DNA of 64,000 bases, taken from positions 3,618-67,617 of the forward strand of contig CAYWZQ010000009.1 in assembly GCA_964462875.1 (NCBI GenBank), read 5' to 3'. Below the pieces are notes generated by a model. The model did not search any database, was not told the origin of the DNA, and saw nothing but the letters and a program-made list of their open reading frames with translations. The DNA is from an uncultured Nitrososphaerota archaeon. Lineage in GTDB: Archaea; Thermoproteota; Methanomethylicia; Culexarchaeales; Culexmicrobiaceae. Below are positions 24,906 through 57,556 of this stretch, piece by piece (position 1 is the stretch's first letter; each line of letters begins with the position of its first letter). Both the position numbers and the translations under genes were made by a program.

Positions 24906-25828
24906 GAAGTGAAGAAGAGGGAATTCAAGAGTTAATGAAGTTACCGGGCATTTCAGTTGGAAGAGAGAGTAACGAGGTTTTAAGGAGTAATATGAAGATT
25001 TGCTTAATAATCTCCAATGATTATGGAGAGAAAATAGTCGAGAATTTAATGAATAGAAGGGGACACTGCAATATATGCTTAGAAAAGTGTATTGGAAAGC
25101 TCTGCAAGTATGGTAAATACGACTTCACACACAATATTCACATAATTAGGGTACCGAGTATTCATGAGTTACCCGAAGTATTGGATGAGCCAGAGAAAAT
25201 ATTGGAGAATAAAATACCTGAGGTAGATCTAGTTATAGCAATGGGTATTCATAATGATTTGTATTTAGCTTTGCCAGAAATTCTCCATAAAAAGGGGATT
25301 AGAGCCCTCATAATCTTCAGAGGGAGCCCATTAGATGCACCTCCAGGAGTTGTAAGGGAAGTCATAGAGCAATGCAATGAGTTTAAAATAGAAGTTGAAA
25401 CTGTGAAGCCACCATGCCTTCTGACACCCAAGAAAAGCAAACCAGTCATAAGCAAATTCATTAAAGAATTCAGAATTGGATATCCAGTACTGGAAGTTAA
25501 AGTAGTGAAGATGGGAAGTAGAGCTAAAATTGAAGGAATTGAAGTGAAGACATCGACACCATGTGGTGCTACTTGGTATATTGCGAGAATGATGCTAGGT
25601 TATGAAGTTAATTTAGAGGACGAGAAGTCCGTAATGGAGATGTGCAGATACGTCGCATCATTACTTCAATCATATTGCATTGCATCATCAGCGTGCGATT
25701 ACGAGTTAGGCGACACGGTGATTCACTGGGCAACCTACATTAGCATAGAATCCTATTTGAGAGCTTTAAACTTGAAAAAGGAATTGAAATATTTTGTTAA
25801 AGAAAGAATTAGGAGAAAAATTACTTGA
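24887..25828 (+). CDS. Conserved Cys-rich protein of unknown function, second tandem paralog
   Basis: Collinear with 23925..24905: 'ICLIISNDYGEKIVENLMNRRGHCNICLEKCIGKLCKYGKY' and 'TSTPCGATWYIARMML'. Confidence 0.6.
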   Translation: MHYSTVRSEEEGIQELMKLPGISVGRESNEVLRSNMKICLIISNDYGEKIVENLMNRRGHCNICLEKCIGKLCKYGKYDFTHNIHIIRVPSIHELPEVLDEPEKILENKIPEVDLVIAMGIHNDLYLALPEILHKKGIRALIIFRGSPLDAPPGVVREVIEQCNEFKIEVETVKPPCLLTPKKSKPVISKFIKEFRIGYPVLEVKVVKMGSRAKIEGIEVKTSTPCGATWYIARMMLGYEVNLEDEKSVMEMCRYVASLLQSYCIASSACDYELGDTVIHWATYISIESYLRALNLKKELKYFVKERIRRKIT

Positions 25829-26813
25829 ATATTGGGATCACTCTTCTACTAAATAGGTCTATTGACTTCCTAACATTTGGACCTATAGGTGACCCTGCAA
25901 CTATCTGCGTTACACCTATTCTGGCTAACTCCTCTATCCTCTTAATGCACATGTCTGGTGTTCCCGTTATTGAGAAGGCATCTATCATCTTCTTGGTAAC
26001 CATTGAAAACGCATCTTTCCATCTAGCTTCGCTCAGTGCTTTCTTAATTTCATTTGCCTCACTAACACTTATTCCATGCCTTTCAAGTATGAACTCTGGA
26101 CTTCCAGCGACAATGAATGCTACAACTCTTGAAGCGGCTTTCATCGCTCTATCCAGATCATCATCTATTGATAGTGAAGTGTATGCGGCAATTTCAATTT
26201 CTTCAATTGACTTGCCAGCTGCCTTAACTCCCTTCTCAATATGCTTCATTGCCTCCTGTATGTCTTTGGGATGTGAAGCGTTTATTAAAACGCCATCACC
26301 ATACTTTGCAGCTATTCTAAGCATTTGAGGCCCTTGAGCTCCAATGTAGATTGGTATTTTACCTGCAACTTTGAAGTTAAATCTTGCCTTCGGAATTCTA
26401 AATACTTTGCCCTCAAATTCAACACTACCCTTCTCAAATAACTGCCTAGCTATCAAGACACATTCCTTCACAGCAGCCACCGGCAACTTCATTTCCACAC
26501 CTAAACTTTCCAATGTAGTCTTGTCTCCTGGACCGACTCCGAGTATTACTCTATTGGGAGCAATTTCACTTAATGAAGCCACTGCTTGAGATGTCATTAC
26601 TGGATTCACGAGGTATGGGTTTGTTACACCTATTCCCAACCTGATTTTGCTTGTGTGTAGAGCTATTGATGTGAGCGTAACGTATACATTTCTATTATTA
26701 TAGTGGTCTGTAACCCATATGTTTTCAAAGCCTCTTTTCTCTGCTTGTATTGCATAAAATGTTGTTTTCCAGAAGGGTTCATAAGGTACGAATTCAATGC
26801 CAAACTTAACCAT
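25821..26813 (-). CDS. mer: F420-dependent 5,10-methylenetetrahydromethanopterin reductase
   Basis: 'KFGIEFVPYEP', 'WVTDHYNNRNVY', 'GVTNPY', 'LGVGPGDKTT', 'IPIYIGAQGPQML', 'INASHPKD' and 'GVTQIVAGSPIGP' align block for block with Mer. Confidence 0.85.
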   Translation of the reverse strand: MVKFGIEFVPYEPFWKTTFYAIQAEKRGFENIWVTDHYNNRNVYVTLTSIALHTSKIRLGIGVTNPYLVNPVMTSQAVASLSEIAPNRVILGVGPGDKTTLESLGVEMKLPVAAVKECVLIARQLFEKGSVEFEGKVFRIPKARFNFKVAGKIPIYIGAQGPQMLRIAAKYGDGVLINASHPKDIQEAMKHIEKGVKAAGKSIEEIEIAAYTSLSIDDDLDRAMKAASRVVAFIVAGSPEFILERHGISVSEANEIKKALSEARWKDAFSMVTKKMIDAFSITGTPDMCIKRIEELARIGVTQIVAGSPIGPNVRKSIDLFSRRVIPIFK

Positions 26814-26819
26814 GAATCA

Positions 26820-27095
26820 TCAACCCCCAATTAGCTCAGCTAATTTAGAAAATTCTAATTCATTTAACTTGCTAGCAGCTTTCTCCGGTTCAATTTTCTT
26901 CGCAATATTAAGGAGGAACTCCAACCCATTAATGGTTGTAAACTTATCCTCCTGCCATAATCTTAGAAATGTTTTCGCCTCCTCGCTATCTATTTCATGG
27001 GACTTTTTTGATGATAGTATAACGTCTATTAAGGCTAAAGCAGCTTTGCGCCTACTACTCTTCGTCATTTCTCTAATTACATCTTTGATAACCAT
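26820..27095 (-). CDS. Small hypothetical hydrophilic protein upstream of mer
   Basis: 91-aa ORF with charged, helical-looking composition. Its stop is 6 nt before the mer start. Confidence 0.35.
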   Translation of the reverse strand: MVIKDVIREMTKSSRRKAALALIDVILSSKKSHEIDSEEAKTFLRLWQEDKFTTINGLEFLLNIAKKIEPEKAASKLNELEFSKLAELIGG

Positions 27096-27186: not shown

Positions 27187-27996
27187 TTGAAAATAGCTAT
27201 AACTGGCAAGGGTGGAGTTGGGAAAACAACAATTGCAGGTACACTTGCGAGGTTATTTGGTAGAACAGGCTTTAAAGTTATAGCTGTTGATGCAGATCCT
27301 AACACTAATCTAGCTTACACGCTTGGACTATCACATAGTATTGCATCTAAAATTCAGCCTCTAGCAGTTAATAGGAGACTTCTAAAAGAGCGTATGGAAG
27401 TTTATCCAGGAAGCCTTGATCAGGGATTCTTTAAGCTTTACCCTAAGGTTGATGACATAGTTGATACTTATGGTGTCAAGTGCCCGGATAACGTTACGCT
27501 CTTAGTTATGGGTACAGTTAGAGATGGAGGAACGGGATGTCTATGTCCAGCTCATGCACTTATGCGTGCAATATTAAGACACTTAATTTTAAAGACAAAC
27601 GAAATAGTAATTCTTGATATGGAAGCGGGGATAGAGCATTTAGCGAGAGGGACTGCGAGAGGTGTGGATTTAATGATAACTGTTGTCGAGCCGAATATGA
27701 AGGCAATAGATACTGCATGTAGAATTAAGAAGTTAGCATATGATATTGAAGTGAAGAGAGTTGCAGCAGTAGGTAATAAGGTTTCGTGTGAGGAAGAGAA
27801 GAGGTTTATTGAGGAAAGTTTAAAGTCAACTAAGCTTGAACTGCTCCAATTAATACCCTACGATGAACATGTAAAAATTGCCGATATGAAGAGAGCTTCA
27901 ATATTAGACTTGTACCCCAACTCACCGGTTGTAAAGGCAATTGAGGAATTGAGGAATAAGATAGTTGAAGTTATTTGGAGGAACCCTTCAACTTAA
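27187..27996 (+). CDS. cooC: CooC/AcsF-family nickel-insertion ATPase (CODH/ACS maturation factor)
   Basis: P-loop 'ITGKGGVGKTT', 'DADPNTNL' and the 'GCLCPAH' CxC metal motif typical of CooC. TTG start. Confidence 0.85.
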   Translation: MKIAITGKGGVGKTTIAGTLARLFGRTGFKVIAVDADPNTNLAYTLGLSHSIASKIQPLAVNRRLLKERMEVYPGSLDQGFFKLYPKVDDIVDTYGVKCPDNVTLLVMGTVRDGGTGCLCPAHALMRAILRHLILKTNEIVILDMEAGIEHLARGTARGVDLMITVVEPNMKAIDTACRIKKLAYDIEVKRVAAVGNKVSCEEEKRFIEESLKSTKLELLQLIPYDEHVKIADMKRASILDLYPNSPVVKAIEELRNKIVEVIWRNPST

Positions 27997-28321
27997 TCCA
28001 TAACTCCCTAACCATGTTCGATCCCATGGACTTAACTTCCTCCCATAAATGCTCAACCTCTTCACTGTATCTTCCACTCTTAATACACTCCTCATACTTA
28101 CTTAAGAAGCTGAACACAAGCCCTATCATAGGATGCTTGAAGAGCTGCAATTGCTCTTTCATAACATTAACTTCACGGATAATTGCTGATTCAACAACCT
28201 TCTCGTCACCTATAATATCTCTCAGAATAACGTTTCCATTACTGAACTTTGCGTATACAATGTCTGTCCCTACATCCTCAATTGAATCAATGCTCTTAGA
28301 TATCACCTTAAACTCGCACAT
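27971..28321 (-). CDS. CooT-like putative nickel-binding protein with a C-terminal extension
   Basis: If started at the internal 'MCEFKVISKSIDSIEDVGTDIVYAKFSNGNVILRDIIGDEKVV', it matches the CooT 'MC...KV' N-terminus with the conserved Cys2. It then carries ~55 extra C-terminal residues. The track ORF starts 4 codons earlier, at 28333. Confidence 0.45.
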   Translation of the reverse strand: MCEFKVISKSIDSIEDVGTDIVYAKFSNGNVILRDIIGDEKVVESAIIREVNVMKEQLQLFKHPMIGLVFSFLSKYEECIKSGRYSEEVEHLWEEVKSMGSNMVRELWIKLKGSSK

Positions 28322-28353
28322 GCAAATCACCAAAAATAGACACCATTCACCGC

Positions 28354-28383: not shown

Positions 28384-28437
28384 TACGATGTTATGTAAAA
28401 TCCCTATGAGAGAAGGTAAAGTGCAGGGTTGTGGGAT

Positions 28438-28902
28438 ATGGTTAAACTCAATCCAATGCAGATATTCAAACTGCTACCAAGAACAAATTGTAAAAAATGT
28501 GGTTATACGTGTATGGCATTTGCAGTTAAGCTTCTACAGAAAGAAGTTAGACTGGAGGATTGCGAGCCACTCTTCACGGATCCAAAGTATTCTAGTAACC
28601 TCGAGAAGCTGAAAGAGCTATTAAAACCTCTATTTGAAGCTGCTGAGACATTGATTAAAATCGATGAAGAGAAGTGCATTGGATGCGGTAATTGCATAAT
28701 TGCATGCCCAGCTAATGTTAGTATTGACCCTGAAGTAGGTAGAGGCATTAATCCGGTTAATGAGGAGGTAGTGTTCACCGTAATTGATGGTAAAATTAAG
28801 GTTTTAAACCTTGAGAAGTGTCGAAGATATCCTCCCCATAGAATGAACTGTAGGATATGTGAGGAAGTTTGCTTTAGTGGAGCTATTAAGGTGGTTGCAT
28901 GA
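28438..28902 (+). CDS. RnfB-like iron-sulfur protein: N-terminal CFeSP/RnfB-type [4Fe-4S] domain plus a 2x[4Fe-4S] ferredoxin domain (FwdG-like)
   Basis: 'LLPRTNCKKCGYTCMAFAVKLLQKEVRLEDC' follows a CX2CX3CX16C pattern like the CdhE/RnfB N-terminal domain. It is followed by 'CIGCGNCIIACP' and a second cluster motif. The track starts at the TTG at 28429. Confidence 0.7.
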   Translation: MVKLNPMQIFKLLPRTNCKKCGYTCMAFAVKLLQKEVRLEDCEPLFTDPKYSSNLEKLKELLKPLFEAAETLIKIDEEKCIGCGNCIIACPANVSIDPEVGRGINPVNEEVVFTVIDGKIKVLNLEKCRRYPPHRMNCRICEEVCFSGAIKVVA

Positions 28903-30149
28903 AGAAGTTTACTAATGTAGTATGTACTGGATGCTCTCTTGCATGTAGTGACCTAGTTGTTGAAGTTGAAGATAGTAGAGTGGAAAGGGTTTGGGGAGCT
29001 TGTAGCCATGGAGTAAAGCGTATAAAGGAGCTACCTGCAAAAAGATTGAAAAGTAATTTAAGTGTAAATGAATTGATCGACAAGGCGATTGATCTATTGA
29101 GAAAATCGAGAAAGCCCTTAATTTATGGATTTACTTCAAGTACAATTGAAACCATAAAAATAGGTCTATCGATCGCTGAAAAATTGAATGGAGTTTTTGA
29201 TAGTGAGCCAAGTATATGTCAACTACATATACCAATATCATTTGAAGTAGGCTTAAAGGAAGTTGGATTCGAAGAAGTTCTCGAGAAATCAGACTTCATA
29301 ATATACGCCTTCACCAACATAGCCAGTACTCATCTCAGACATGCAAGCAAATACGCCGTCTATCCTAGAGGGGAGTATGTTAAATCTGGTAAGGAGAGCA
29401 GAATTGTTATGACAATCAACTATAGAATGAATGATACCACTAAAATAGCTCAGCACAACATTAAAGTGGAGCTCGGTAAGGAAGTTGAAGCAATAGCTTC
29501 ATTGAAGAAGCTATTAATCGACGAAGAGCTGAAAGCGTCAGAGAAACTAGGTTTAACACGAGAAGCAGCCCTCCTCTTACTTAATGACTTTAAAGCTTCA
29601 ACTTACACCTCAATATTCGTGGGGCACCATCTACTATCTAGCATTTCAGCTAAAGAAGCCTACCACGAGATAGCTAGTCTCGTAAAAGAGATTGAAGAGA
29701 GAAAGGTTGCTACTTTAATACCACTTGCTGAAGAACTGAATTCCATGGGGGTAGCTAGAATTCTCTATGAAAAATATGGTGCCACACATGCATTAGAGTT
29801 CAAGAATGGGAAAGCGGAAAGCAATCCTACAGTTACAAGTGCATTTTCGAAGTTGATGAGGGAAGAGTTCGACTTAGCACTAATCGTTGGAAGCGATTTA
29901 TTTACATGCATCCCGCTTAGTGTAGCTGTAAAGCTTAAGAAGATACCAGTAATCTATGTTGGGTGTAGGAAAACTTTAATCTCAAAAGTTGCCAATGTAA
30001 GCATCCCAACTTTAATAGTCGGATTAGAGAGTGGAGGAGAGATAGTCAGGTCTGATGGTGTCAGAGTAGAGCTTACTCCGTTTCTAAATCCCCCACCAAG
30101 CATTTTAAGTGAAGAGGAGATTTTAAGTGAGATTTTAAGAGGGCTCTAG
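28899..30149 (+). CDS. Formylmethanofuran dehydrogenase subunit B-like molybdopterin oxidoreductase (second FwdB/FmdB paralog)
   Basis: N-terminal 'NVVCTGCSLACSDLVV' CxxCxxxC [4Fe-4S] motif as in FwdB. ~416 aa matches FwdB length. Assignment is at family level only. Confidence 0.55.
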   Translation: MKKFTNVVCTGCSLACSDLVVEVEDSRVERVWGACSHGVKRIKELPAKRLKSNLSVNELIDKAIDLLRKSRKPLIYGFTSSTIETIKIGLSIAEKLNGVFDSEPSICQLHIPISFEVGLKEVGFEEVLEKSDFIIYAFTNIASTHLRHASKYAVYPRGEYVKSGKESRIVMTINYRMNDTTKIAQHNIKVELGKEVEAIASLKKLLIDEELKASEKLGLTREAALLLLNDFKASTYTSIFVGHHLLSSISAKEAYHEIASLVKEIEERKVATLIPLAEELNSMGVARILYEKYGATHALEFKNGKAESNPTVTSAFSKLMREEFDLALIVGSDLFTCIPLSVAVKLKKIPVIYVGCRKTLISKVANVSIPTLIVGLESGGEIVRSDGVRVELTPFLNPPPSILSEEEILSEILRGL

Positions 30150-30150
30150 A

Positions 30151-32520
30151 TTGGTGGCGGGTAGAGATCTAAAGATTGCAGTTCTCATATGCAGGTGCGG
30201 CACAAACATAGCTGGAGTAGTAGATGTCGATTATTTAGTTAAAGAGATATCGCGTGTTGATGGCGTGGTTTGCTATGAGCATGAACACTGGTGTAGTGAA
30301 GATGGACTTCTCAAAATGCGTGAAGTAATTAAAGATGAAAAACCAGATAGAGTAGTCATCGCGGCTTGCACGCCACATCTGCATGAAGAGCTTTTCAGAG
30401 AAAACGCTGAGAAAGCTGGTTTAAATGGTGGATACGTGAAAGTAGTCAACATAAGGGAGCAATGTAGCTGGGTTCATTATAGAGAGCCGAGGAGAGCAAC
30501 CATTAAGGCTTTAGAATTAATTAGAGCTGCTATTGCAGCTGCTCCTTACTTTAGTCCCATTAAGAAAATTAAAGTTCCCATTACTAAGAAAGCTCTCGTA
30601 ATTGGAGGTGGAGTTTCCGGAATAACAGCTTCACTCTCACTAGCTGAAAAAGGTATTGAGGTTTATCTCGTGGAAAGAGAGGGATTCCTTGGAGGCCATA
30701 TGGCTAAACTTGATAAAGTTTTCCCAACAATGGACTGCAGCATTTGCATTCTTGGGCCATTAATGTCGAAGACTTACTCTCACCCTAAAATTAAAGTTTT
30801 AACGTTAAGTGAAGTGAAGGAAGTTGAAGGTGTACCAGGCAACTTCAGAGTTAAGATATTGAAGAGACCGAGATATGTTGACGAAGATAAGTGTAATGGA
30901 TGTAATAAGTGCTTGGAAGTATGCCCAATAGAAGTTCCAAATGAATATAATTATGGGCTAGGATACAGGAAGGCTATTGTGAAACCAGTTGCTGAAACTG
31001 TTCCAATTGCACCATACATTGACATGAAAAACTGTATTCTATGCATGTCATGTGCTGGAGTTTGCGAAAAAGAGGCAATAGATTTTGATCAGAAAGAAGA
31101 GCTTATAGAGCTCAACGTGGGGACAATAATTCTAGCGACAGGATTTGAAATTATAGATCCAAAGGAACTTGAAGAGTATGGTTATGGCAAATTTAGAAAT
31201 GTCATTTTAGGTATCGAATTGGAAAGACTTGTTAACCCGGATGGGCCTACAAGGGGTAGGGTCATTAGAATAAGTGATGGAAAGCCCGTAAGACGGGCAG
31301 CAATAATTCTATGTGCTGGATCCAGAGATGAAAGACACCTCCCATATTGTTGCAAGTTTGGTTGCATGGCCGGATTAAAACACGCAGTTTACTTAACAAG
31401 TTTAATTCCAAAAATTGAAGTTTACATTTTATATACGGATATTAGGGCAGCAGGTAAAGGATTCGAGGAATTTTATCAAAGAGTTAGGCGACTAGAAAAC
31501 GTCCATTTCATTAGAGGCAAGCCTTGTGAAATACTTGAGGATAGTGATGGAAGCATTAAAATACAAGTGTTTGACACCATAGCAGAGGAGCTATTTGAAC
31601 TGAAAGTCGATTTACTAATTCTTGAAGCTGGAATTGTACCTTCAAAGGGAACTAGCGAATTGTCGAAAATGCTTAAAATACCATTAAGCCCTGAGGGATT
31701 CTTCATGGAGTTTCATCCAAAGCTGAGACCAGCTGAAACATTTATTCATGGAGTATTCCTTGCTGGTGCATGCCAAGGACCAAAAGACATATCTGATAGC
31801 GTGTCTCATGCGGGCTTAGCAGCCTCTAAAGCAGCAACTCTGTTAATGTCTGAGAGCTTGGAGCTCCAAGTCCAAGCACCAGAAGTTGACACAAATAAAT
31901 GTGTTAAGTGCGGGCTCTGCGTTATATCCTGCGATTATAATGCCATAAAATTGACTAGAGAAGGCCCGGTGATAGCAACTGAACTCTGCGGTGGATGTCA
32001 AGCATGTGTAGCAGCCTGTCCTACTGGAGCGCTCAAACCAGTAGTGGATTTGAGTAATGAAGCAATATCAGCTATGATAGGGGAGCTGTTAAGGGAGAAG
32101 AGCGAGTATCCATTAATCATAGTGTTTGCATGTAAGTGGTGCGGTTATGAAGCGTTAGACTATGCGGGTGTAAATAGAATACCATATCCGACCGGTGTGA
32201 GAGTGATAGAGGTTACATGCTCTGCTAGAGTTAATCCAATACATATCCTCGAAGCATTGAAACTAGGTGCTGATGGAGTACTAATAATTGGGTGTAGAGA
32301 GCAAGACTGCCACTATAGAACTGGAAGGATTAGAGCCAATAGAAAACTTAATGCTTTAAAGGAAGCTCTAAAGCTTATAGGGATAAATCCAGATAGAGTT
32401 AAGATCATTGGTGCAGGGGCATCTGAAGGCGAAGAAGCAGCTAAGAAAATAACTGAATTTATTGAGGAAATAAAGAAAATTGGACCTTTAGGAACCGAAT
32501 TTGGGCGGGAGAAACTGTGA
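30151..32520 (+). CDS. hdrA: Heterodisulfide reductase subunit A with a C-terminal MvhD-like domain (HdrA-MvhD fusion)
   Basis: N-terminal Cys-rich domain, FAD fold 'ALVIGGGVSGITASLSLA', inserted and C-terminal 2x[4Fe-4S] motifs, and C-terminal 'ACKWCGYEALDYAG...CSARVNP...IIGCREQDCHY', which is MvhD-like. Confidence 0.85.
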   Translation: MVAGRDLKIAVLICRCGTNIAGVVDVDYLVKEISRVDGVVCYEHEHWCSEDGLLKMREVIKDEKPDRVVIAACTPHLHEELFRENAEKAGLNGGYVKVVNIREQCSWVHYREPRRATIKALELIRAAIAAAPYFSPIKKIKVPITKKALVIGGGVSGITASLSLAEKGIEVYLVEREGFLGGHMAKLDKVFPTMDCSICILGPLMSKTYSHPKIKVLTLSEVKEVEGVPGNFRVKILKRPRYVDEDKCNGCNKCLEVCPIEVPNEYNYGLGYRKAIVKPVAETVPIAPYIDMKNCILCMSCAGVCEKEAIDFDQKEELIELNVGTIILATGFEIIDPKELEEYGYGKFRNVILGIELERLVNPDGPTRGRVIRISDGKPVRRAAIILCAGSRDERHLPYCCKFGCMAGLKHAVYLTSLIPKIEVYILYTDIRAAGKGFEEFYQRVRRLENVHFIRGKPCEILEDSDGSIKIQVFDTIAEELFELKVDLLILEAGIVPSKGTSELSKMLKIPLSPEGFFMEFHPKLRPAETFIHGVFLAGACQGPKDISDSVSHAGLAASKAATLLMSESLELQVQAPEVDTNKCVKCGLCVISCDYNAIKLTREGPVIATELCGGCQACVAACPTGALKPVVDLSNEAISAMIGELLREKSEYPLIIVFACKWCGYEALDYAGVNRIPYPTGVRVIEVTCSARVNPIHILEALKLGADGVLIIGCREQDCHYRTGRIRANRKLNALKEALKLIGINPDRVKIIGAGASEGEEAAKKITEFIEEIKKIGPLGTEFGREKL

Positions 32521-38519: not shown

Positions 38520-38522
38520 GCT

Positions 38523-50621: not shown

Positions 50622-52333
50622 TTCCCAATCAAATACTAATTAAAAATGGTATAGTTTATGACCCAATAAATAAGGTCAATGGAGAAAAAATGGATATTGC
50701 AATTAAAAATGGAAAAATAGTCGAAATAAGCCAAATCGACAAATCAAAAGCCAAAATAATTGATGCTTCAGGGAAAATCGTAATGCCCGGAGGAGTCGAT
50801 TTACACTCACACATTGCGGGCCCCAAGGTCAACCTAGGAAGACTCATGAGACCTGAGGACCACTACGACTACGTGATGAAACTAGTTCCCGGTATAAGGA
50901 GATCAGGTTCAGGCTACACTGTTCCCTCAACAACAATTGCAGGCTATAAGTACGCCGAAATGGGATATACAACAGTAATTGAACCAGCATCCCCACCACT
51001 CAAGAACAGGCACACACACGAAGAACTGGATGACACACCCATAATCGATAAGGCAGTATTCATATTAATGGATTCAAACTGGTTTATTCTCAAGTACCTT
51101 GAAAGCAATGATATTGAAAAGTGCGCAGCCTATGTGGCTTGGCTTCTTGAAGCAACTAAGGGGTATGCCATCAAGCTCGTAGATCCAGGAGTAGCTATTC
51201 CATGGATTAGAGGAAAAGGTTATGGACTGGATTTAGATGATCAAATACCACCATTCAATCTAACACCAAGAGAAATAGTTACGGGTCTCTGCAAAGTTAA
51301 TGAAAAACTCAAACTACCGCATCCAATACATGTCCACTGCAATAAATTGGGCATACCCGGAAACTACACAACAACTCTAAATACAATGAAAGCGGTTTCA
51401 GGTCTAGCAGGTGAAGATAAAGTTGCAATGCATGTAACACATGTCCAGTTCAATAGCTATGGTGGAGTTTCATGGGGAAACTTGAAGAGTAGAGCCGAGG
51501 AAATTGCAAAATATGTTAACTCAGTAAATCACATAACCTTAGATTTAGGCCAAATAATTTTCGGAGAAGCAACTACAATGACAGCTGATGCACCCTTTGA
51601 ATTTGCCCTCTTTCACATGACTAAGTGGAAGTGGGGCGGAGCAGAAGTTGAAGCTGAAGCAGCAGCAGGAATAGTACCGTTTAGGTACAAAGCAAAGAAC
51701 TATGTACATGCCATTCAATGGTGTATTGGACTAGAAGTAGCATTACTCGTTAAAAACCCATGGAAAGTGGTGCTAACAACAGACCACCCAAATGGAGGAC
51801 CATTCCAGAAGTACCCAGAAGTCATAGCATGGCTAATGAGCAGGAAAGCGAGAAGCAAAGTCATAGAAAAGCTAAATAGCAGAGCTTTAAGGGAAGTAGT
51901 TTTACCAAGTATAGAGAGGGAATATGACCTGTATGAAATAGCAATTATAACTAGAGCTGGACCGGCCAAGTTATTGGGATTGGAAAGCAAAGGACACTTA
52001 GGTATTGGAGCTGATGCAGACATAGCTATTTACGATGTAAATCCACTTGAAGTAGACTTATCAGAGAACCCCGAGTTAATAATCAAAGCATTCAGCAAAG
52101 CACTTTACACTATAAAGAATGGAGAAATTGTAGTGAAGAATGGGGAAGTAGTTAAGCACATTTATGGAACAACCTACTATGTGAAAGCCAAAGTAGAGGA
52201 TGAACTTATGAACCAGGTACTGGGTGAGGTGAAGAACAAGTTCAAGGAATGGTACACCGTCAGTTTTGAAAATTATGAAATAAAAGATCATGAAATAAGA
52301 AATCTTAAACCCATAACTGCGGGAGGTGCATAA
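50618..52333 (+). CDS. fwdA: Formylmethanofuran dehydrogenase subunit A (amidohydrolase)
   Basis: 'ILIKNGIVYDPING...IKNGKIVEI' and the 'GGVDLHSHIAGPKVN' metal-binding motif. 571 aa. Confidence 0.85.
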   Translation: MIPNQILIKNGIVYDPINKVNGEKMDIAIKNGKIVEISQIDKSKAKIIDASGKIVMPGGVDLHSHIAGPKVNLGRLMRPEDHYDYVMKLVPGIRRSGSGYTVPSTTIAGYKYAEMGYTTVIEPASPPLKNRHTHEELDDTPIIDKAVFILMDSNWFILKYLESNDIEKCAAYVAWLLEATKGYAIKLVDPGVAIPWIRGKGYGLDLDDQIPPFNLTPREIVTGLCKVNEKLKLPHPIHVHCNKLGIPGNYTTTLNTMKAVSGLAGEDKVAMHVTHVQFNSYGGVSWGNLKSRAEEIAKYVNSVNHITLDLGQIIFGEATTMTADAPFEFALFHMTKWKWGGAEVEAEAAAGIVPFRYKAKNYVHAIQWCIGLEVALLVKNPWKVVLTTDHPNGGPFQKYPEVIAWLMSRKARSKVIEKLNSRALREVVLPSIEREYDLYEIAIITRAGPAKLLGLESKGHLGIGADADIAIYDVNPLEVDLSENPELIIKAFSKALYTIKNGEIVVKNGEVVKHIYGTTYYVKAKVEDELMNQVLGEVKNKFKEWYTVSFENYEIKDHEIRNLKPITAGGA

Positions 52334-53201
52334 AGTGAGCGAAGAACTATGCGAAATCATAATTAAACCTAAAAAAGCATTTAGAGTACCCGTGGACATG
52401 GAACTAATAAAGCCGGAAAACATTGCAGGGAAAACACTAAATGAGTTATTAAATGAATTGACTGTTTATGAAGGTAATAGAGAGAGAAAATTTGGAGAGC
52501 TATTCGATGTTAAAGGAGAGCCAGTAAGTGATGCTAGCAAAATAAGATTGATAATCGAGCCAAGTACTAGAAAGTTGTGGAGCATTGGCATGGGAATGAC
52601 TACCGGAGAAATAGTAGTTAAGGGTGATGCAGGCCACTACATTGGAGCTAAAATGCGCGGCGGAAAAATAGTGATTTATGGAAAAACAGGATCATGGATT
52701 GGCGCCGAGATGAGTGGAGGAACAATAGAAGTTCATGGAGATGCCGGAGACTATGTTGGAGCAAGATTTAGAGGCAAAGGTTCAGAAGCAGGAATGACCG
52801 GCGGGATGATTATCATACACGGTAATGCTGGAGTTGAAGTAGGTAGGGGAATGATTAAGGGTACAATAATGATTTATGGGAGCTGCCTAGAGTTTCTGGG
52901 CGCAAATATGAAGGGAGGATCAATACTAGTTAAGGGCAATTGTCCAGGTAGAGTAGGCTCAGGTATGACGGGAGGTAAAATAGTGATATGCGGACACGTT
53001 AATAGCATACTACCATCATTCTACATAGACGATAAAGTCGACAAGACGAAAGTTAAGGGCAATGTTATTGAGGGGCCATTTTACCTATTCATCGGAGACT
53101 ACATGGCTGCTCCAAAGGTTTATGGAAGGCTATTTATATCAATTCCAAGCAATCCACATTTAAAGAGGTTCTTAGAGCTAATTGAGGAGGTAGAAGCATG
53201 A
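52326..53201 (+). CDS. fwdC: Formylmethanofuran dehydrogenase subunit C
   Basis: Tandem glycine-rich repeats 'GxxxGAxMxGGxIxVxG(D/N)AG', typical of FwdC and the GltB C-terminal domain. Confidence 0.85.
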   Translation: MHKVSEELCEIIIKPKKAFRVPVDMELIKPENIAGKTLNELLNELTVYEGNRERKFGELFDVKGEPVSDASKIRLIIEPSTRKLWSIGMGMTTGEIVVKGDAGHYIGAKMRGGKIVIYGKTGSWIGAEMSGGTIEVHGDAGDYVGARFRGKGSEAGMTGGMIIIHGNAGVEVGRGMIKGTIMIYGSCLEFLGANMKGGSILVKGNCPGRVGSGMTGGKIVICGHVNSILPSFYIDDKVDKTKVKGNVIEGPFYLFIGDYMAAPKVYGRLFISIPSNPHLKRFLELIEEVEA

Positions 53202-54163
53202 TAAGCGTGAATAAAAAGGCAATGAAAATAATTGATGAAATGATCGATAAGGAAGATGAATTGAACATTAAGGTATTGAAAGCAGAGTCAGGAGCAACAA
53301 TAATAGACTGTGGAGTAAATGTTGATGGAGGATTTCTAGCAGGAGTATATGCATCCAAAATATGTCTAGGAGGACTTGGGGAAGTAAACTTATCACATAA
53401 AGTCTACGAGGAAGTAGTATTACCAGTAGTAAATGTATACACGGACCATCCGGTAATAGCATGCATGGCATCCCAATATGCAGGTTGGAGAATAAGTGTT
53501 GGAAAATACTTCGCAATGGGGTCAGGGCCAGCTAGAGCCCTATCTAAAAAGCCAAAATATCTCTATGAGGAAATAGGATATGAAGATATATCAGATGAAG
53601 CAGTAATAGTGCTTGAAGCCTCTAAACTCCCACCAAACGAAGCAGTACTGGAAATAGCTAGCAAGTGTAATGTTAAACCCCAAAACCTATACATTCTAGT
53701 GACACCAACTAGCAGCATTGCAGGCTCAGTACAAATAAGTGCAAGAATAGTTGAAACAGGCATACATAAGCTGCATGAACTAAAATTTGACATCAAGCAC
53801 ATAGTCAATGGTTCAGGTACCTGTCCAATAGCACCAGTACACCCAAACGCTATGATCATGATGGGTAGAACAAATGACATGATACTTTATGCCGGAGAAA
53901 CTACCTACTTGATCAATTATGAAGATGATGAAAAGCTAAGAGAGATAGTAAGAAAGGTCCCATCATGCACATCCAGAGATTATGGGAAACCATTCTATGA
54001 AGTATTTAAGGGATATAATTTTGACTTCTACAAAGTTGATCCACATCTATTCGCTCCAGCAGTAATAAGCGTAACTAATAAGCGCACCGGATTGACGCTC
54101 AAAGCAGGATACGTAAATGTTGAAGTGTTAAAGAAATCGATTGGCTTTGAGAAGTTAGAATAA
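53198..54163 (+). CDS. mch: Methenyltetrahydromethanopterin cyclohydrolase
   Basis: 'SGATIIDCGVNVDGG', 'VNVYTDHPVIACMASQYAGWRISVGKYFAMGSGPARAL', 'YEEIGYED' and 'TSSIAGSVQISARIVETGIHKL' match Mch closely. Confidence 0.9.
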   Translation: MISVNKKAMKIIDEMIDKEDELNIKVLKAESGATIIDCGVNVDGGFLAGVYASKICLGGLGEVNLSHKVYEEVVLPVVNVYTDHPVIACMASQYAGWRISVGKYFAMGSGPARALSKKPKYLYEEIGYEDISDEAVIVLEASKLPPNEAVLEIASKCNVKPQNLYILVTPTSSIAGSVQISARIVETGIHKLHELKFDIKHIVNGSGTCPIAPVHPNAMIMMGRTNDMILYAGETTYLINYEDDEKLREIVRKVPSCTSRDYGKPFYEVFKGYNFDFYKVDPHLFAPAVISVTNKRTGLTLKAGYVNVEVLKKSIGFEKLE

Positions 54164-55239
54164 TGATCGTGAGAAAATTCAGGGATAGGGACTTCATAGA
54201 AACGCGTGAAGGTATGTTCTTTTGCGTTATCGGAAATGTGCATCCAAGGAACAGGATAATATCATACTTAAAGTACGTTCCATGGGAAGTCAAGGGAGCA
54301 AAGAGATTAGGTTGGAGGAGAAATGGAAGAGAATATGGAAGAATTCTACCACATTATAGTGCTCTAGGAGTCCAGAAAGTTAAAGATTTTTTAAAGCACT
54401 TCTTTCCCAATTATGTTTACTTCGATAAATACCTAAACATAGAGATTATAGGTATCCCAGTTAATGAAATAAAAACACATTATAGACCCGAAGTTAGAAT
54501 GCAGGAAATATTGAAGAAATCATCAGATGAACTTGAAGCTGATGTAGCGTTTTTAGCCAGGGAACTTGCGTCAGCAGGGAATATTTCAAAAGCTTATCTG
54601 GGAGTAACGGGTTCAATTCTAATTAAAATTCATAATCCAAAATTTTCAGACATAGACTTGATAGTTTATGGTAGAGAAAATGCATTAAGGATAAAAAATT
54701 CGATTTCAAACTTAATTAATCAAAATAAGAGTTTCAGGCGGCTAGATGAGATAACGAAGAAAAGACTTGCAAAGGAAATTTCGCAAATTCATCCATTAAC
54801 TCTACATGAAGCATACAAGCTAATTAGTGAACGCTGGTATAATGGGTTCTTTAGAGGAAGATTCTTCTCAATTCATCCAGTTAAGCTTGAAAGAGAAGTT
54901 AATGAAATACATGAGCAGAAAATCTATAGGTTCAAGGGCATAGTAACTATTAAATGCAAGGTCGAGGATGCTAGCGAATCCATGTTTCTCCCCTCTAAGT
55001 ACTTGGTTAAGGAAGTAAGGTTCCTTGATGGAAGAGAGGTTAATAATTTGAGAGAGGTCGTTAGCTATGAAGGACTATACTGCGATGCAGCAGCTAATGG
55101 AGATATCATTTATGTTAGAGGTAAACTGGAGGAAGTTAATGACCTTACAACATCCGAGACCTATCATAGAGTTCAAGTGGGCTCATTCGAGGCTAGAGGA
55201 TCGGATTTCATAAAAAATGTAAGGTGGATTAAAGGTTAA
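54163..55239 (+). CDS. Uncharacterised Pol-beta-type nucleotidyltransferase-signature protein (paralog B), between mch and the ATP-grasp ligase
   Basis: 'GVTGSILIKIHNPKFSDIDLIVYG'. N-terminal 'DFIETREGMFFCVIGNVHPRNRIISYLKYVP' is collinear with paralog A. Its ATG overlaps the mch stop (TAATG). Confidence 0.6.
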   Translation: MIVRKFRDRDFIETREGMFFCVIGNVHPRNRIISYLKYVPWEVKGAKRLGWRRNGREYGRILPHYSALGVQKVKDFLKHFFPNYVYFDKYLNIEIIGIPVNEIKTHYRPEVRMQEILKKSSDELEADVAFLARELASAGNISKAYLGVTGSILIKIHNPKFSDIDLIVYGRENALRIKNSISNLINQNKSFRRLDEITKKRLAKEISQIHPLTLHEAYKLISERWYNGFFRGRFFSIHPVKLEREVNEIHEQKIYRFKGIVTIKCKVEDASESMFLPSKYLVKEVRFLDGREVNNLREVVSYEGLYCDAAANGDIIYVRGKLEEVNDLTTSETYHRVQVGSFEARGSDFIKNVRWIKG

Positions 55240-55273: not shown

Positions 55274-56155
55274 ATGATCATTGGAATAGCAACTAGAAAT
55301 CGCAGAGCATGGTGCTCAATCCAATTATTTAAAGCTATAAAGAAAAGAGGGTTGAAGGCAGCTTTTATTGACCTCGCAAAAACCATTGTGGGCATAAATT
55401 GCAACTTCAATATATTATATAAAGGAGTAGATTTAGCTGAAAAATTAAATGCGCTAATCGTAAGACCGCTTGGAGTTGATTCCCCGGAGAGAACATTTTC
55501 AAGACTAAATGTCCTACATAAATTAAATGATTGCGGTGTAAAGGTTATAAATAGTCCTCATGCAATTGAGAAATGCATAGATAAGTTCGCTACACTTCTA
55601 CTCCTCAGTAAACATGGAATACCAGTTCCTCAAACAATAGTCACAGAAGAGATTAGCGGTGGGCTAAAAGGCTTTGAAAATCTCGGCGGAGATGTTGTAG
55701 TAAAACCAATTTTCGGGTCAAGAGGATATGGAATTATTCGAGTAAGCGATTTTGATGTTGCTTTCAGAGTCTTTAAAACACTATATTCAATTGGCAACGT
55801 CATCTACCTGCAGAAATTCATTCCGCATAGAAATAGAGATATCAGAGCTTTTGTTGTTGGAGGAGAAGTAATATCGTCCATGGTAAGAGAGGCTAGTAGC
55901 TGGAAAACCAATATAGCTCAGGGAGCAAAGCCCAGATACATTAAGTTAAGTAGCGAGCTAAGCGAAATAGCAGTGAAGGCAGCAGAAGCGCTGGGATGCG
56001 AAGTTGCAGGAGTCGATATTTTGGTGAGTGAAAATGGGGAATATTATGTAACAGAGATAAATAGCATGCCCAACTGGCAGGGACTGCAATCTGTTACCCC
56101 ATTTAATATAGCTGAGAAAATAATAGAATATATTGTTTACAGCATTATGAAGTAG
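55274..56155 (+). CDS. RimK-family ATP-grasp ligase, likely tetrahydromethanopterin:alpha-L-glutamate ligase (MptN), or else CofF-like
   Basis: ATP-grasp fold with 'GDVVVKPIFGSRGYGI' and 'GVDILVSENGEYYVTEINSMPNW'. Lies in the operon with the H4MPT-dependent enzymes. Confidence 0.7.
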   Translation: MIIGIATRNRRAWCSIQLFKAIKKRGLKAAFIDLAKTIVGINCNFNILYKGVDLAEKLNALIVRPLGVDSPERTFSRLNVLHKLNDCGVKVINSPHAIEKCIDKFATLLLLSKHGIPVPQTIVTEEISGGLKGFENLGGDVVVKPIFGSRGYGIIRVSDFDVAFRVFKTLYSIGNVIYLQKFIPHRNRDIRAFVVGGEVISSMVREASSWKTNIAQGAKPRYIKLSSELSEIAVKAAEALGCEVAGVDILVSENGEYYVTEINSMPNWQGLQSVTPFNIAEKIIEYIVYSIMK

Positions 56156-56161
56156 CTTTAG

Positions 56162-57556
56162 CTATTTTTCAAATATTCTGGCGTATCTAGCCCATCTATA
56201 GTATGCACCTAGAGAGGATGCAGCCCTATCGGGAGATGGATATGCGGGTACGCCAACATCATTTAGCAGCTTTAATCCTTCATAACATTCTACCCCACCA
56301 ATGAAGCTAACTACAAGTGGCTTAGGAGCTCTAGATTCAATGTAGCTTCTCACGATTGCCCTAGCAACCATGCCCGGATCAGTTATTGCGGTGTGACAGT
56401 AAATTACTAATATGGCACCAATTCTTGGGTCCTCAAGAGCTACTTTAACTGCACCAGCATAAGCCTCCTCAGTTGCTTCGCCGGTTAGGTCTATGGGGTT
56501 TCTCACGCTTCCAAAGGGAGGCATAAACTTTCTAAATTCATTGGCTAAGTCCTCCGGTAAATCCATTAAGTGAAGCTCATACTCTTCACATGCATCTGCT
56601 GCTATTACGCCAGCTCCACCACCATTAGTTATGACAACAACGTTCTCATTTATTGGAGGAGGCTGGAAAACCATAGTTCTAGCCCAATCAAATGCTTCTT
56701 GAATAGACTTGGCTCTTAAAACACCTGCCTGCCTGAAAGCCGCACTATAGACCTCATCAGAACCAGCCAATGAACCAGTATGTGATGCAGCCGCCAAGGC
56801 ACCTCTCTCAGATCTACCAGCCTTAAGCACAATAATTGGTTTCACCTTACTAACTCTTTTCGCTACTTCCAAGAAGCGCCTCCCATTCTTTAAGCCCTCC
56901 ATGTAAATTAAAATGACCTTAGAATTTGGATCATTAACGAAGAAATCAAGCAAATCTGCATCCTCAATATCAGCTTTATTTCCAACGCTCACAACAGCTG
57001 ATAAGCCAATTCTCTCTAGAAAAGTCCATCCCATAAGAGCTATGCCCAAGGCACCGCTTTGAGATATAAATGCTATATTACCTTTTCGAACCTTCATGGG
57101 GCCAAATGTAGCATTTAACTTAGAGGGAGTATAAAGCACGCCGAAAACATTTGGACCCAAAATTCGCATGCCATATTTCCTAGCTATTTCAACTACTTTC
57201 CTCTCAGCTTCAACATTACCTACTTCAGAGAAACCAGAACTTATTATCACAACAACCTTTACTCCCTTTCTCCCGCAATCCTCAAGAACCTTAGGCACAA
57301 TTCTTGCTGGAACAGAAATTACTGCTAAGTCAACTTCATCTGGAACATCGACTATTGATGGATAAGCTTTATACCCCAAAATTTCATCTGCATGAGGATT
57401 CACCGGGAATATTTTTCCATCATATCCGAAGCCTATTATGTTCCTTAGAATTTCATGACCAATTTTACCAGGAGATCTCGATGCACCTATAATTGCAACT
57501 GACCTGGGATAAAAAAGATATTTAAGCCCATTAGAGCTCTCAACATGATTACCCAT
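56162..57556 (-). CDS. Acetyl-CoA synthetase (ADP-forming) alpha subunit / NDP-forming acyl-CoA synthetase
   Basis: N-terminal CoA-binding 'PRSVAIIGASRSPGKIG' followed by a succinyl-CoA-synthetase-like ligase domain. 464 aa. No beta subunit is adjacent. Confidence 0.8.
   Translation of the reverse strand: MGNHVESSNGLKYLFYPRSVAIIGASRSPGKIGHEILRNIIGFGYDGKIFPVNPHADEILGYKAYPSIVDVPDEVDLAVISVPARIVPKVLEDCGRKGVKVVVIISSGFSEVGNVEAERKVVEIARKYGMRILGPNVFGVLYTPSKLNATFGPMKVRKGNIAFISQSGALGIALMGWTFLERIGLSAVVSVGNKADIEDADLLDFFVNDPNSKVILIYMEGLKNGRRFLEVAKRVSKVKPIIVLKAGRSERGALAAASHTGSLAGSDEVYSAAFRQAGVLRAKSIQEAFDWARTMVFQPPPINENVVVITNGGGAGVIAADACEEYELHLMDLPEDLANEFRKFMPPFGSVRNPIDLTGEATEEAYAGAVKVALEDPRIGAILVIYCHTAITDPGMVARAIVRSYIESRAPKPLVVSFIGGVECYEGLKLLNDVGVPAYPSPDRAASSLGAYYRWARYARIFEK

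Follow-up and report, generated by a model that had tools for sequence, protein, structure and literature searches.

A complete H4MPT-type Wood-Ljungdahl pathway in one chromosomal neighborhood of a probable Culexmicrobium-type archaeon

Analysis of a 64-kb stretch of archaeal DNA (here, the window) revealed a block that encodes the archaeal Wood-Ljungdahl pathway of the H4MPT type with all of its catalytic steps. With a probability of roughly 85%, we read it as an ordinary chromosome segment of a nonmethanogenic Culexmicrobium-type archaeon, carrying a complete pathway through ancient vertical inheritance and no mobile island. The catalytic set comprises Fwd (a fused D-B subunit, A, and C), Ftr, Mch, Mtd, and Mer, followed by the CODH/ACS complex (CdhABCDE); two CooC proteins, CooT, and two DUF166 proteins form a nickel/maturation set; and a small Fe-S protein, a second FwdB, an HdrA-MvhD fusion, an FwdF polyferredoxin, and an FwdD-like protein form a redox module of the "Fwd-Hdr" type. 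An ADP-forming acyl-CoA synthetase, represented by its alpha subunit, completes the inventory. About 25 functionally linked genes fall among roughly 36 consecutive ones, which is far beyond chance given a genome of about 1,500 to 2,500 genes. From ~23.1 to 57.6 kb they form nine short blocks, each resembling a transcription unit, that alternate in strand, and the order recurs in relatives. The true left edge lies at ~23086: position 25821, where a preliminary description of this DNA had begun the block, is preceded by two DUF166 genes and, before them, by one that is CofE-like.

In NCBIfam and Pfam scans, all of the genes named in that description, from mer to the acetyl-CoA synthetase alpha subunit, were present at full length with scores above or near the curated family cutoffs, and the pathway that it had called near complete proved to be complete and intact. 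The genes are not fragmented pseudogenes, a reading that would have undone the description, because the profile alignments run end to end and the extracted ORFs contain no internal stop codons; the coding density of the window is 95%.

In the methyl branch, the F420-dependent methylene-H4MPT reductase gene mer (25821-26813, minus strand; NF002619, 428 bits against a cutoff of 276) is full length and has directly upstream of it an ORF of 91 aa (26820-27095, minus strand) with no match in the Pfam and NCBIfam scans. The formylmethanofuran:H4MPT formyltransferase gene ftr (46988-47902, minus strand; NF002554, 416 bits, cutoff 297) lies next to an operon-like block on the plus strand (48028-54163), all of whose members exceed their curated cutoffs: mtd (48028-48867; 404 bits, cutoff 297), the fused fwdD-B (48885-50621; FwdD at residues 6 to 128 and FwdB at residues 152 to 570, the latter with 560 bits against 328), fwdA (50618-52333; 804 bits, cutoff 393), fwdC (52326-53201; 242 bits, cutoff 131), and mch (53198-54163; 452 bits, cutoff 229). 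The FwdB part of the fusion displays the canonical Cys-His and PMRGH motifs. Farther along are a RimK-family ATP-grasp ligase (55274-56155, plus strand; TIGR00768, 227 bits, cutoff 143), which is MptN-like but misses the MptN cutoff (NF040720, 275 bits against 350), and the ADP-forming acyl/acetyl-CoA synthetase alpha subunit (56162-57556, minus strand; TIGR02717, 605 bits, cutoff 567), for which the window holds no beta subunit. At the opposite end, the CofE-like protein (23086-23928, plus strand) belongs to the PF01996 family (Pfam F420_ligase, 73.9 bits), and its homologs occur near cdh in five relative loci. Its identification as CofE itself was rejected, as the CofE equivalog profile gave only 47 bits against a cutoff of 181.

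The CODH/ACS genes are arranged on the minus strand (34194-41445) in the order cdhA-cdhB-cdhC-orf55-cdhD-cdhE. CdhA (39085-41445) scores 1,188 bits against a cutoff of 781, and cdhB (38523-39068), cdhC (37083-38519), cdhD (35643-36926), and cdhE (34194-35630) each pass at least one curated family cutoff; CdhC carries the CGC motif of the A cluster. The intervening ORF of 55 aa (36913-37080, minus strand) is kept in two relative loci. Two CooC/AcsF-type nickel insertion ATPases with matches to the MinD/CbiA families accompany these genes, one (27187-27996, plus strand) with a GKGGVGKT P-loop and a CLC version of the CxC motif and the other (41552-42355, minus strand) with GKGGTGKT and CYC. A CooT-like nickel chaperone (27971-28333, minus strand; PF10133, 32 bits, cutoff 27) likely starts at the ATG at codon 4, which would give it an N-terminal Met-Cys. 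The preliminary description did not list the tandem DUF166 paralogs (23925-24905 and 24887-25828, plus strand; Pfam DUF166, 184 and 166 bits for the pair), which lie just left of its starting point. In Methanococcus maripaludis, CODH/ACS-dependent autotrophy needs DUF166, which there adjoins CooC2 (bioRxiv 10.1101/2024.03.05.583561). By analogy, the pair in the window is a candidate CODH/ACS accessory factor.

The redox module begins with a small Fe-S protein (28429-28902, plus strand) that combines an N-terminal FeS domain of the CdhE/RnfB type (PF04060, 45.8 bits) with a ferredoxin (Fer4 matches). It is followed by a divergent FwdB-like subunit (28899-30149, plus strand; TIGR03129, 288 bits, below the cutoff of 328) that has no Pfam Molybdopterin match and is 31% identical to the canonical FwdB of the window; its nearest named relative is labeled "Candidatus Methanomethylicota archaeon." Both genes, upstream of HdrA, were missing from the preliminary description. 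Alignment of the second FwdB with the solved FwdB and with orthologs revealed that the cysteines of the cluster and the Cys that serves as metal ligand are kept, whereas His119 and the catalytic Arg288 are lost. The HdrA protein (30151-32520, plus strand; NF040770, 945 bits, below the cutoff of 1,100) is of the HdrA2 type (type Ia) with a C-terminal MvhD fusion: residues 8 to 629 match the solved HdrA, with equivalents of E356 and K409 kept, and residues 654 to 780 match MvhD. No HdrBC was found in the 64 kb. The FwdF-like polyferredoxin (32517-33800, plus strand; NF042909, 254 bits, below the cutoff of 375) has seven CxxCxxCxxxC motifs, and the stand-alone FwdD-like protein (33812-34204, minus strand; NF042908, 55 bits; Pfam Molydop_binding, 33 bits, cutoff 26.8) is encoded at the very end of the cdh transcription unit, where its gene overlaps the cdhE stop by 11 nt. 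This FwdB/FwdD-HdrA-polyferredoxin module matches the "Fwd-Hdr" cluster of the cultured Methanonezhaarchaeia, whose description reports a fused FwdBD in an FwdABCD cluster beside pathway genes and a further FwdBD associated with Hdr and FwdF; the overall layout in the window is the same.

The window belongs to a 68-kb metagenome contig (ENA ERZ27248328, k141_369317). On the basis of protein similarity and synteny, its source is most likely an uncultured archaeon of the Culexmicrobium type within the class Culexarchaeia (Thermoproteota). CdhA is 92% and 86% identical to the representative sequences of clusters to which the metagenome-derived proteins RLE51051.1 and RLE54503.1 also belong and 84% identical to that of the cluster with MCS7365770.1 of "Candidatus Culexmicrobium"; identity is 76% to GCA_019056805.1, 68 to 71% to Nezhaarchaeales, and ~63% to Bathyarchaeia. 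Gene order is the same in the 92% and 84% relatives. The cdh genes may not follow the species tree exactly, because CdhA is only 60% identical to that of Culexarchaeum nevadense, less than to the Nezhaarchaeales. In the published table of Culexarchaeia genes (PMC9723716), contig Ga0190363_1001945 (GB-1867-035) lists fwdG as gene 3, fwdB as 4, fwdF as 6, cdhE as 8, cdhD as 9, cdhC as 11, cdhB as 12, and cdhA as 13. The window agrees with this contig at every gene, down to the slots without annotation that correspond to HdrA, the FwdD-like protein, and the 55-aa ORF, with fwdG as the equivalent of the small Fe-S protein. In the same table, contig Ga0190363_1004361 carries ftr, mtd, fwdBD, and fwdA as genes 4 to 7, and contig Ga0080004_1136821 carries cdhE to cdhA as genes 5 to 9, ftr, mtd, fwdBD, fwdA, fwdC, and mch as 13 to 18, and mer as 22. 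The G+C content of the window (~40%) falls within the published range for Culexarchaeia (32 to 42%).

No Mcr or Mtr gene was found in the 64 kb, as had been claimed; the accompanying claim that the window lacks methyltransferase genes fails for a MetE-like member of a methyltransferase family (14530-15495), which lies outside the block. "Candidatus Culexmicrobium" and other Culexarchaeia reportedly have neither MCR nor F430 biosynthesis and, of the Mtr subunits, only MtrH, with mcrABGCD in none of the 10 genomes tabulated (PMC9723716), and by analogy with these published relatives, mcr and mtr would be absent from the rest of this genome as well. The host is probably thermophilic and nonmethanogenic. 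The proposed fit with a protein-fermenting or acetogenic archaeon agrees with the published account of these organisms as peptide- and lipid-degrading generalists in which the pathway might run reductively (acetogenesis) or oxidatively (PMC9723716), and the upstream peptidase cluster invoked for it is present (M24, M19, S9, and an amidohydrolase). In this lineage, the pathway could be reversible, acting either as an electron sink and CO2 fixation route with acetate and ATP as end products or in the oxidation of acetyl-CoA and methyl groups derived from the degradation of peptides and lipids. Both options have been proposed for Culexarchaeia (PMC9723716).

One alternative is that the contig comes from a methanogen or alkane oxidizer, e.g., of the Methanonezhaarchaeia, with mcr and mtr elsewhere and the pathway feeding or draining methyl-CoM. 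The CdhA values of 68 to 76% to Nezhaarchaeales and related genomes, the layout shared with the cultured methanogen YNP3N, and a view limited to 64 kb of the genome all speak for this; however, the nearest relatives (84 to 92%) group with Culexmicrobium and not with Nezhaarchaeales, the gene order is that of a published Culexmicrobium genome without mcr, in which only mtrH was found (PMC9723716), and two Methanonezhaarchaeia families have lost MCR yet keep the pathway, leaving this origin improbable. Still harder to sustain is the view that the genes are decaying remnants of an ancestral methanogenesis that have lost their function. It could draw on the loss of Arg288 and His119 from the second FwdB and on a neighborhood without HdrBC and the synthetase beta subunit, but the core enzymes are intact, including their metal site motifs, in densely coding DNA, and the Arg288/His119 loss is common to most members of the wider family of the second FwdB, in which the Arg-less form is kept as a subfamily rather than arising by random decay.

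The preliminary description also suggested that so tight a supercluster could move as a unit, and recent acquisition of a mobile 31- to 34-kb metabolic island would be in keeping with the unusually tight clustering of a whole pathway and with similar sub-blocks in distant phyla (Asgard, Bathyarchaeia, and Hadarchaeales). The evidence makes this quite unlikely. In tetranucleotide and G+C composition, the cluster is indistinguishable from its flanks (tetranucleotide correlation, r = 0.977, higher than between the halves of either part; permutation p of 0.15); no integrase or transposase domain was found in any ORF scanned, the window has no tRNA genes and no Rfam matches, and flanking repeats amount to short matches at chance level. 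Housekeeping genes (guaA, thyX, and thiC) directly flank one side, with a HerA-NurA-Mre11-Rad50 operon farther upstream. The order within sub-blocks is conserved among relatives, so there is no sign of a mobile unit; the blocks themselves are rearranged piecemeal instead of being present or absent as a whole, and every gene ranks the other lineages by identity in the same order. Genes of cdh and the methyl branch also lie within 10 kb of each other in Bathyarchaeia, Hadarchaeales, Jordarchaeia, Methanomethylicia-labeled, and Culexarchaeum loci. Moreover, a 3.5-kb insert without a link to the pathway (43523-46954, both strands), which the preliminary description had missed, interrupts the block between the cdh and ftr units and encodes a polytopic membrane protein (43523-44281, plus strand), a wHTH-PfkB sugar kinase (44374-45819, plus strand), and an MFS transporter (45779-46954, minus strand); it is kept in the two relative loci that keep the 55-aa ORF and absent from two others. 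The clustering would be best understood as selection for the coregulation and coassembly of an ancient, vertically inherited pathway.

For Culexarchaeia, both methane-free use of the pathway and this order of its genes have already been published, and the fresh points here are only the loss of Arg288 and His119 in the second FwdB and a conserved pair of nucleotidyltransferase-like proteins. The first of the pair (42371-43399, minus strand) has a weak Pfam NTP_transf_2 match, and its homologs lie near cdh in seven relative loci. The second (54163-55239, plus strand) has 1,131 homologs, named "predicted nucleotidyltransferase" by their sources, and is a paralog of the first (33% identity; E value of 1e-47). 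No full-length match to it was found in the PDB; in its AlphaFold2 model (pLDDT of 95), a nucleotidyltransferase core of the Pol-beta type lies between an N-terminal beta domain and a C-terminal OB fold.

After all ORFs had been listed, every substantial one in the window was scanned against NCBIfam and Pfam profiles. The scans recovered each of the genes named in the preliminary description where it had been placed, with end-to-end equivalog matches above the curated cutoffs for mer, ftr, mtd, the fused fwdD-B, fwdA, fwdC, mch, cdhA to cdhE, and acd α. All four catalytic subunits of Fwd (A to D) are thus present, with scores above their cutoffs for fwdA (804 bits), for the FwdB portion of the fusion at 48885-50621 (560 bits), and for fwdC (242 bits); in the fused FwdB, both active-site motifs, Cys-His and Arg-Gly-His, have their canonical form. 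Ftr, Mch, Mtd, and Mer are all full length and exceed their equivalog cutoffs. The five-subunit CODH/ACS (CdhABCDE), with the A-cluster Cys-Gly-Cys motif in CdhC, is accompanied by its Ni-insertion factors, namely, CooT and two CooC-type ATPases that both possess a P loop and a CxC metal motif. No stop codon falls inside any extracted ORF, and the coding density of the window is 95%. Together, the end-to-end matches, the metal and active-site motifs, the uninterrupted ORFs, and the dense coding indicate that the archaeal H4MPT-type Wood-Ljungdahl pathway is complete and intact, with full-length rather than fragmented enzymes, which is more than the "near-complete" pathway originally proposed. 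All of its steps lie within 34.5 kb, along with the maturation factors (two CooC, CooT, and two DUF166 proteins). The MptN-like ligase noted earlier does belong to the RimK family, but it falls short of the MptN equivalog cutoff (275 versus 350 bits).

Among the ORFs of at least 80 aa in the 64-kb window, none encodes McrABG or MtrA to MtrH; within the window, there is therefore no sign of a methanogen or an alkane oxidizer, in agreement with the initial reading. That reading had also excluded methyltransferase genes, and here it needs qualification, as a MetE-like (Meth_synt_2) protein of a methyltransferase family is encoded at 14530-15495 on the minus strand, scoring below the methionine synthase cutoffs. 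The Acd α subunit scores 605 bits, and the β subunit is not encoded in the window, nor are any hydrogenase/Fdh, Rnf, Ech, or Fpo modules. The lifestyle that had been suggested from the gene content, a protein-fermenting or acetogenic archaeon, accords with what has been published for the lineage (PMC9723716).

The closest CdhA homologs come from two clusters whose representatives are 92% and 86% identical to the window protein and which also hold proteins with RLE accessions from metagenome-assembled genomes (RLE51051.1 and RLE54503.1). Next comes the representative of the cluster in which a "Candidatus Culexmicrobium" protein is found (84%), then GCA_019056805.1 (76%), Nezhaarchaeales (68 to 71%), and Bathyarchaeia (about 63%). 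Culexmicrobium falls within the class Culexarchaeia. The loci of the 92% and 84% relatives have exactly the gene order of the window over 22 kb, and in the 76% relative these modules are all present but rearranged. The same order can be read from the published Culexarchaeia gene table (Kohtz et al. 2022, ISME Commun, PMC9723716): on one contig of GB-1867-035, fwdG, fwdB, fwdF, cdhE, cdhD, cdhC, cdhB, and cdhA are genes 3, 4, 6, 8, 9, 11, 12, and 13, and the unannotated slots 5, 7, and 10 match the HdrA, FwdD-like, and 55-aa ORFs of the window, reproducing the order fwdG-fwdB-[hdrA]-fwdF-[fwdD-like]-cdhE-D-[orf]-C-B-A gene number by gene number. On another contig of this genome, ftr, mtd, fwdBD, and fwdA are genes 4 to 7; in YNP-WB-040, cdhE to cdhA (genes 5 to 9), ftr, mtd, fwdBD, fwdA, fwdC, and mch (genes 13 to 18), and mer (gene 22) all lie on one contig (PMC9723716), paralleling the ftr-mtd-fwdBD-fwdA-fwdC-mch series of the window. 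Both the closest homologs and the gene order match published members of Culexarchaeia (Culexmicrobiaceae), the most likely source of the window, and its GC content of about 40% lies inside the published range of 32 to 42% (PMC9723716). Genes for rRNA, tRNA, and ribosomal proteins are absent from the window.

Culexarchaeia also share the absence of mcr (found in 0 of the 10 genomes in the table) and the proposed lifestyle, a peptide- and lipid-degrading generalist in which the pathway may serve acetogenesis or acetyl-CoA/methyl oxidation, with MtrH as the sole Mtr subunit present (PMC9723716). Hence, the main finding is already known: the lineage, the lack of MCR and MTR, the proposed physiology, and the gene order are all contained in the 2022 paper and its tables, and stating this averts a false claim of novelty. 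More broadly, a complete H4MPT-type pathway in nonmethanogenic archaea has ample precedent: Bathyarchaeia (e.g., PMC7886697), Archaeoglobus, Hadarchaeales, and Asgard archaea possess these enzymes, for which acetogenic or oxidative roles have likewise been proposed. The window genome is nevertheless distinct from the published Culexarchaeia (84% identity between its CdhA and the Culexmicrobium cluster representative), and the main text of that paper speaks of "portions" of the H4MPT branch and does not take up the gene clustering, DUF166, the nucleotidyltransferase-like genes, or the degenerate state of the second FwdB. The second FwdB and the conserved uncharacterized genes are accordingly modest leads. 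In addition, a compact locus with every known CODH/ACS maturation factor and these conserved genes lends itself as a template for rebuilding the pathway in a heterologous host. Separately, the best of the matches listed in a scan of genome contigs, 72% identical to the window CdhA, is an archaeal cdhA of the five-subunit type on a contig labeled "uncultured Eubacteriales bacterium" (CAZJXZ010000087.1), which is probably misbinned.

The tight clustering had suggested that the genes could move as a unit, and a comparison of composition between the block and the rest of the genome had been proposed as a check. Within the window, we found that the block (about 23.1 to 57.6 kb) is not distinct from its flanks: GC content is flat along the window, the pooled tetranucleotide frequencies of block and flanks correlate at r = 0.977, which is higher than between the halves of either part, and a permutation test on 4-kb segments gave P = 0.15. 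An island would also be expected to carry the usual hallmarks of mobility, yet the window has neither tRNA genes nor Rfam matches, no integrase or transposase domain occurs in any ORF scanned, and the flanking repeats amount to short chance-level matches. The block is bordered by housekeeping genes: guaA, thyX, and thiC flank it on one side, and on the other, at a greater distance upstream, lie HerA-NurA-Mre11-Rad50. In a comparison of 80 loci from other genomes, the cdh genes and the methyl-branch genes show the same rank order of declining identity to the window, and the cluster recurs piecemeal: cdh is found with fwdA-fwdC-mch in Bathyarchaeia, with ftr-fwd-mch in Hadarchaeales and Jordarchaeia, with ftr-mtd-fwdBD in Culexarchaeum, and beside an Fe-S protein, FwdB, HdrA, a polyferredoxin, and DUF166 in Hodarchaeota and Promethearchaeota. 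In loci L006, L072, L075, and L081 of nonmethanogenic archaea, fwd, ftr, and mch are partly colocated with cdh, and only some of the methyl branch lies within 10 kb of cdhA. Taken together, these observations argue against transfer as a unit, and the pattern is that of an ancient pathway, passed on vertically and with its modules held together by selection, rather than that of a mobile island.

The pathway-related genes extend past the left border first given, to about 23086, with a CofE-like gene (PF01996; 23086-23928) and two tandem DUF166 paralogs (23925-25828). In Methanococcus maripaludis, DUF166 adjoins the second CooC and is required for CODH/ACS-dependent autotrophy, as demonstrated by transposon fitness profiling, knockout, and complementation (bioRxiv 10.1101/2024.03.05.583561). 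The window resembles the M. maripaludis cdh operon and its divergent cooC2-DUF166 pair in associating two CooC paralogs and DUF166 with cdhABCDE; however, its DUF166 gene is tandemly duplicated and is separated from the cdh operon by about 8 kb, with mer and the CofE-like gene as neighbors. The latter recurs near cdh in several lineages; it is not CofE itself, with 47 bits against an equivalog cutoff of 181. Directly upstream of mer and on the same strand, a 91-aa ORF (26820-27095, minus strand) looks helical and has no family match. The cdh genes form a minus-strand unit, NTa-cooC2-cdhA-B-C-orf55-cdhD-E, in which NTa is a nucleotidyltransferase-like gene and whose last member is a stand-alone FwdD-like gene overlapping the cdhE stop codon by 11 nucleotides. 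The 55-aa ORF between cdhC and cdhD (36913-37080, minus strand) is 54 to 64% identical at the protein level in two close relatives, corresponds to an unannotated gene slot on the published Culexmicrobium contig, and shows similarity to both the CdhD N-terminal segment and the CdhC C-terminal tail. The insert that separates the cdh block from the ftr block (43523-46954) codes for a polytopic membrane protein lacking a family match, a PfkB sugar kinase with an N-terminal winged helix, and an MFS transporter; it has no evident link to the pathway and is kept in the two closest relatives and missing from more distant ones. The CooT ORF (27971-28333, minus strand) was listed with a TTG start, and an ATG three codons on would give an N-terminal Met-Cys; Cys2 of CooT is a known Ni-binding residue. 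The 144-aa ORF that overlaps it on the plus strand matches no family and is probably spurious.

Another unit consists of genes for an Fe-S protein (28429-28902), a divergent FwdB-like protein (the second FwdB; 28899-30149), an HdrA-MvhD fusion, and a FwdF-like polyferredoxin, whose start and stop codons overlap or abut. With the FwdD-like gene, these make up a colocated Fwd-Hdr module (28429-34204) of the type described in "Ca. Methanonezhaarchaeum fastidiosum" YNP3N (Sci Adv 2025, PMC12700198), in which a second FwdB/FwdD set likewise accompanies Hdr and a FwdF polyferredoxin, and a separate FwdABC(D) cluster with a fused FwdBD lies beside other pathway genes. YNP3N, however, is a methanogen with MCR, and its Fwd-Hdr cluster includes HdrBC; no protein with a CCG domain, and hence no HdrB or HdrC, is encoded in the window, whereas in the 76% relative HdrC and HdrB follow directly after the FwdD-like gene. 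The window HdrA can be aligned from end to end with HdrA proteins of solved structure; it has an MvhD domain fused to it and retains Glu and Lys (E356 and K409), which serve as markers of flavin-based bifurcation in one HdrA survey (PMC12054007). It shares the C-terminal MvhD fusion, the adjacent polyferredoxin, and both of these residues with HdrA2 of Methanosarcina acetivorans (PMC5296606; type Ia in PMC12054007), but it scores below the HdrA2 family cutoff (945 versus 1,100), has no adjacent HdrB2C2, and, unlike the M. acetivorans protein, comes from a probably nonmethanogenic organism without a known heterodisulfide. In the 92% relative, HdrA was called as two ORFs (L082, 18901-21262; 562 and 226 aa) rather than as one 789-aa protein; either the HdrA core and the ferredoxin-MvhD part are truly separate proteins there, or the assembly contains a frameshift.

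We aligned the second FwdB with solved FwdB structures, its orthologs, and its Asgard and Bathyarchaeia counterparts. It retains the N-terminal [4Fe-4S] cysteines and the metal-ligand Cys, but His119 is replaced by Gln, at a position that varies among the orthologs, and the Arg-Gly-His motif, which we take to be Arg288 to His290 of the Methanothermobacter enzyme, is replaced by Ala-Glu-Glu, with the Ala conserved across the subfamily. A catalytic role is reportedly assigned to Arg288 in a 2016 structure paper. His119 and His290 are among the FwdB residues named in PMC11656701. At the Arg288 position, the Hodarchaeota counterpart has Ile and the Bathyarchaeia counterpart has Pro, the latter having also lost the metal-ligand Cys. 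By alignment, then, only the Cys of the catalytic set Cys118, His119, and Arg288 is kept in the window protein. A search of 1.84 billion representative sequences with a profile of the subfamily retrieved 1,352 relatives; among the 150 best of these, the cluster cysteines are present in nearly all and the Cys-His-Arg triad in 16, a classification that depends on automated alignment and hence is approximate where the members are most distant.

What this protein does bears on the working of the recently proposed Fwd-Hdr complexes. For YNP3N, the second FwdBD, with Hdr and FwdF/FwdG, was proposed by the authors to oxidize formate (PMC12700198), whereas the second FwdB of the window is devoid of both Arg288 and His119. 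Precedents for noncatalytic relatives exist: molybdopterin oxidoreductase-like proteins in the hdrA clusters of Methanosarcinales and ANME (PMC12054007) similarly combine a FwdB/FdhA fold, a degenerate active site, and a gene adjoining hdrA, and FhcB of Methylorubrum (PMC11656701) is a further degenerate FwdB-fold protein. The parallel is incomplete, in that Cys118 is missing from the Methanosarcinales/ANME proteins, whose clade lies near FdhG/FhcB, whereas the second FwdB keeps this Cys and the [4Fe-4S] motif, has lost Arg288 and His119 instead, and has a FwdD-like partner subunit. Given the lost active-site residues and the noncatalytic precedents, we infer from the sequence that a scaffold or electron transfer role may be at least as likely as formate oxidation for this copy. 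In its fullest form, this proposal would hold that the HdrA-linked FwdB/FwdD pair is not a formate/CO2 oxidoreductase but a member of a large, largely unrecognized radiation of FwdB-like proteins with a [4Fe-4S] site and no catalytic triad, serving as an electron transfer scaffold that links the bifurcating HdrA-MvhD and the polyferredoxin to CODH/ACS. In its favor, the FwdD-like partner is translationally coupled to cdhE, and the module adjoins cdh in Culexarchaeia, Asgard, and Bathyarchaeia loci. We regard this full version as a rather doubtful proposition, with roughly one chance in four of being correct; if true, the scaffold role would revise the formate oxidation proposed for the Fwd-Hdr cluster.

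The conserved genes around cdh include two nucleotidyltransferase-like paralogs that are 33% identical to each other. NTa (42371-43399) lies directly upstream of cooC2 (41552-42355) and cdhA, and NTb (54163-55239) lies directly downstream of mch. Homologs of both turn up near cdh in a number of lineages, including distant ones in which they adjoin cdh and mch. Their family comprises over 1,100 members named only "predicted nucleotidyltransferase." The predicted structure of NTb (pLDDT of 95) combines a β domain, a Pol-β-type transferase core, and an OB fold, an architecture common to the two paralogs; no full-length solved counterpart was found in the PDB, and sequence searches against PDB chains gave nothing useful for either NTb or the 252-aa membrane protein. 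As a weaker possibility, cofactor biosynthesis, specifically that of the methanopterin side chain, may be the role of the genes recurring near cdh that resemble CofE, nucleotidyltransferases, and MptN. We also considered whether the nucleotidyltransferase-like genes are specific to the pathway and rejected this, as homologs occur in Thermofilum, Vulcanisaeta, Sulfolobales, and Methanomethylicia; the family is also present in archaea without CODH/ACS.

Toward one end of the window, a complete archaeal DNA end resection operon (1646-8929, minus strand) codes for NurA, a 220-aa protein, HerA, Mre11, and Rad50. Such NurA-HerA-Mre11-Rad50 operons are typical of thermophilic archaea, and beyond one end of the window only this same HerA/Rad50 operon was retrieved. 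Next to it, an SdhA/TfrA-like flavoprotein (8952-10568, minus strand), with no partner subunit nearby, has thiol:fumarate reductase subunit A as its best match (396 bits, below the cutoff). In Culexarchaeia, SdhA has been reported to be linked with a membrane hydrogenase cluster.
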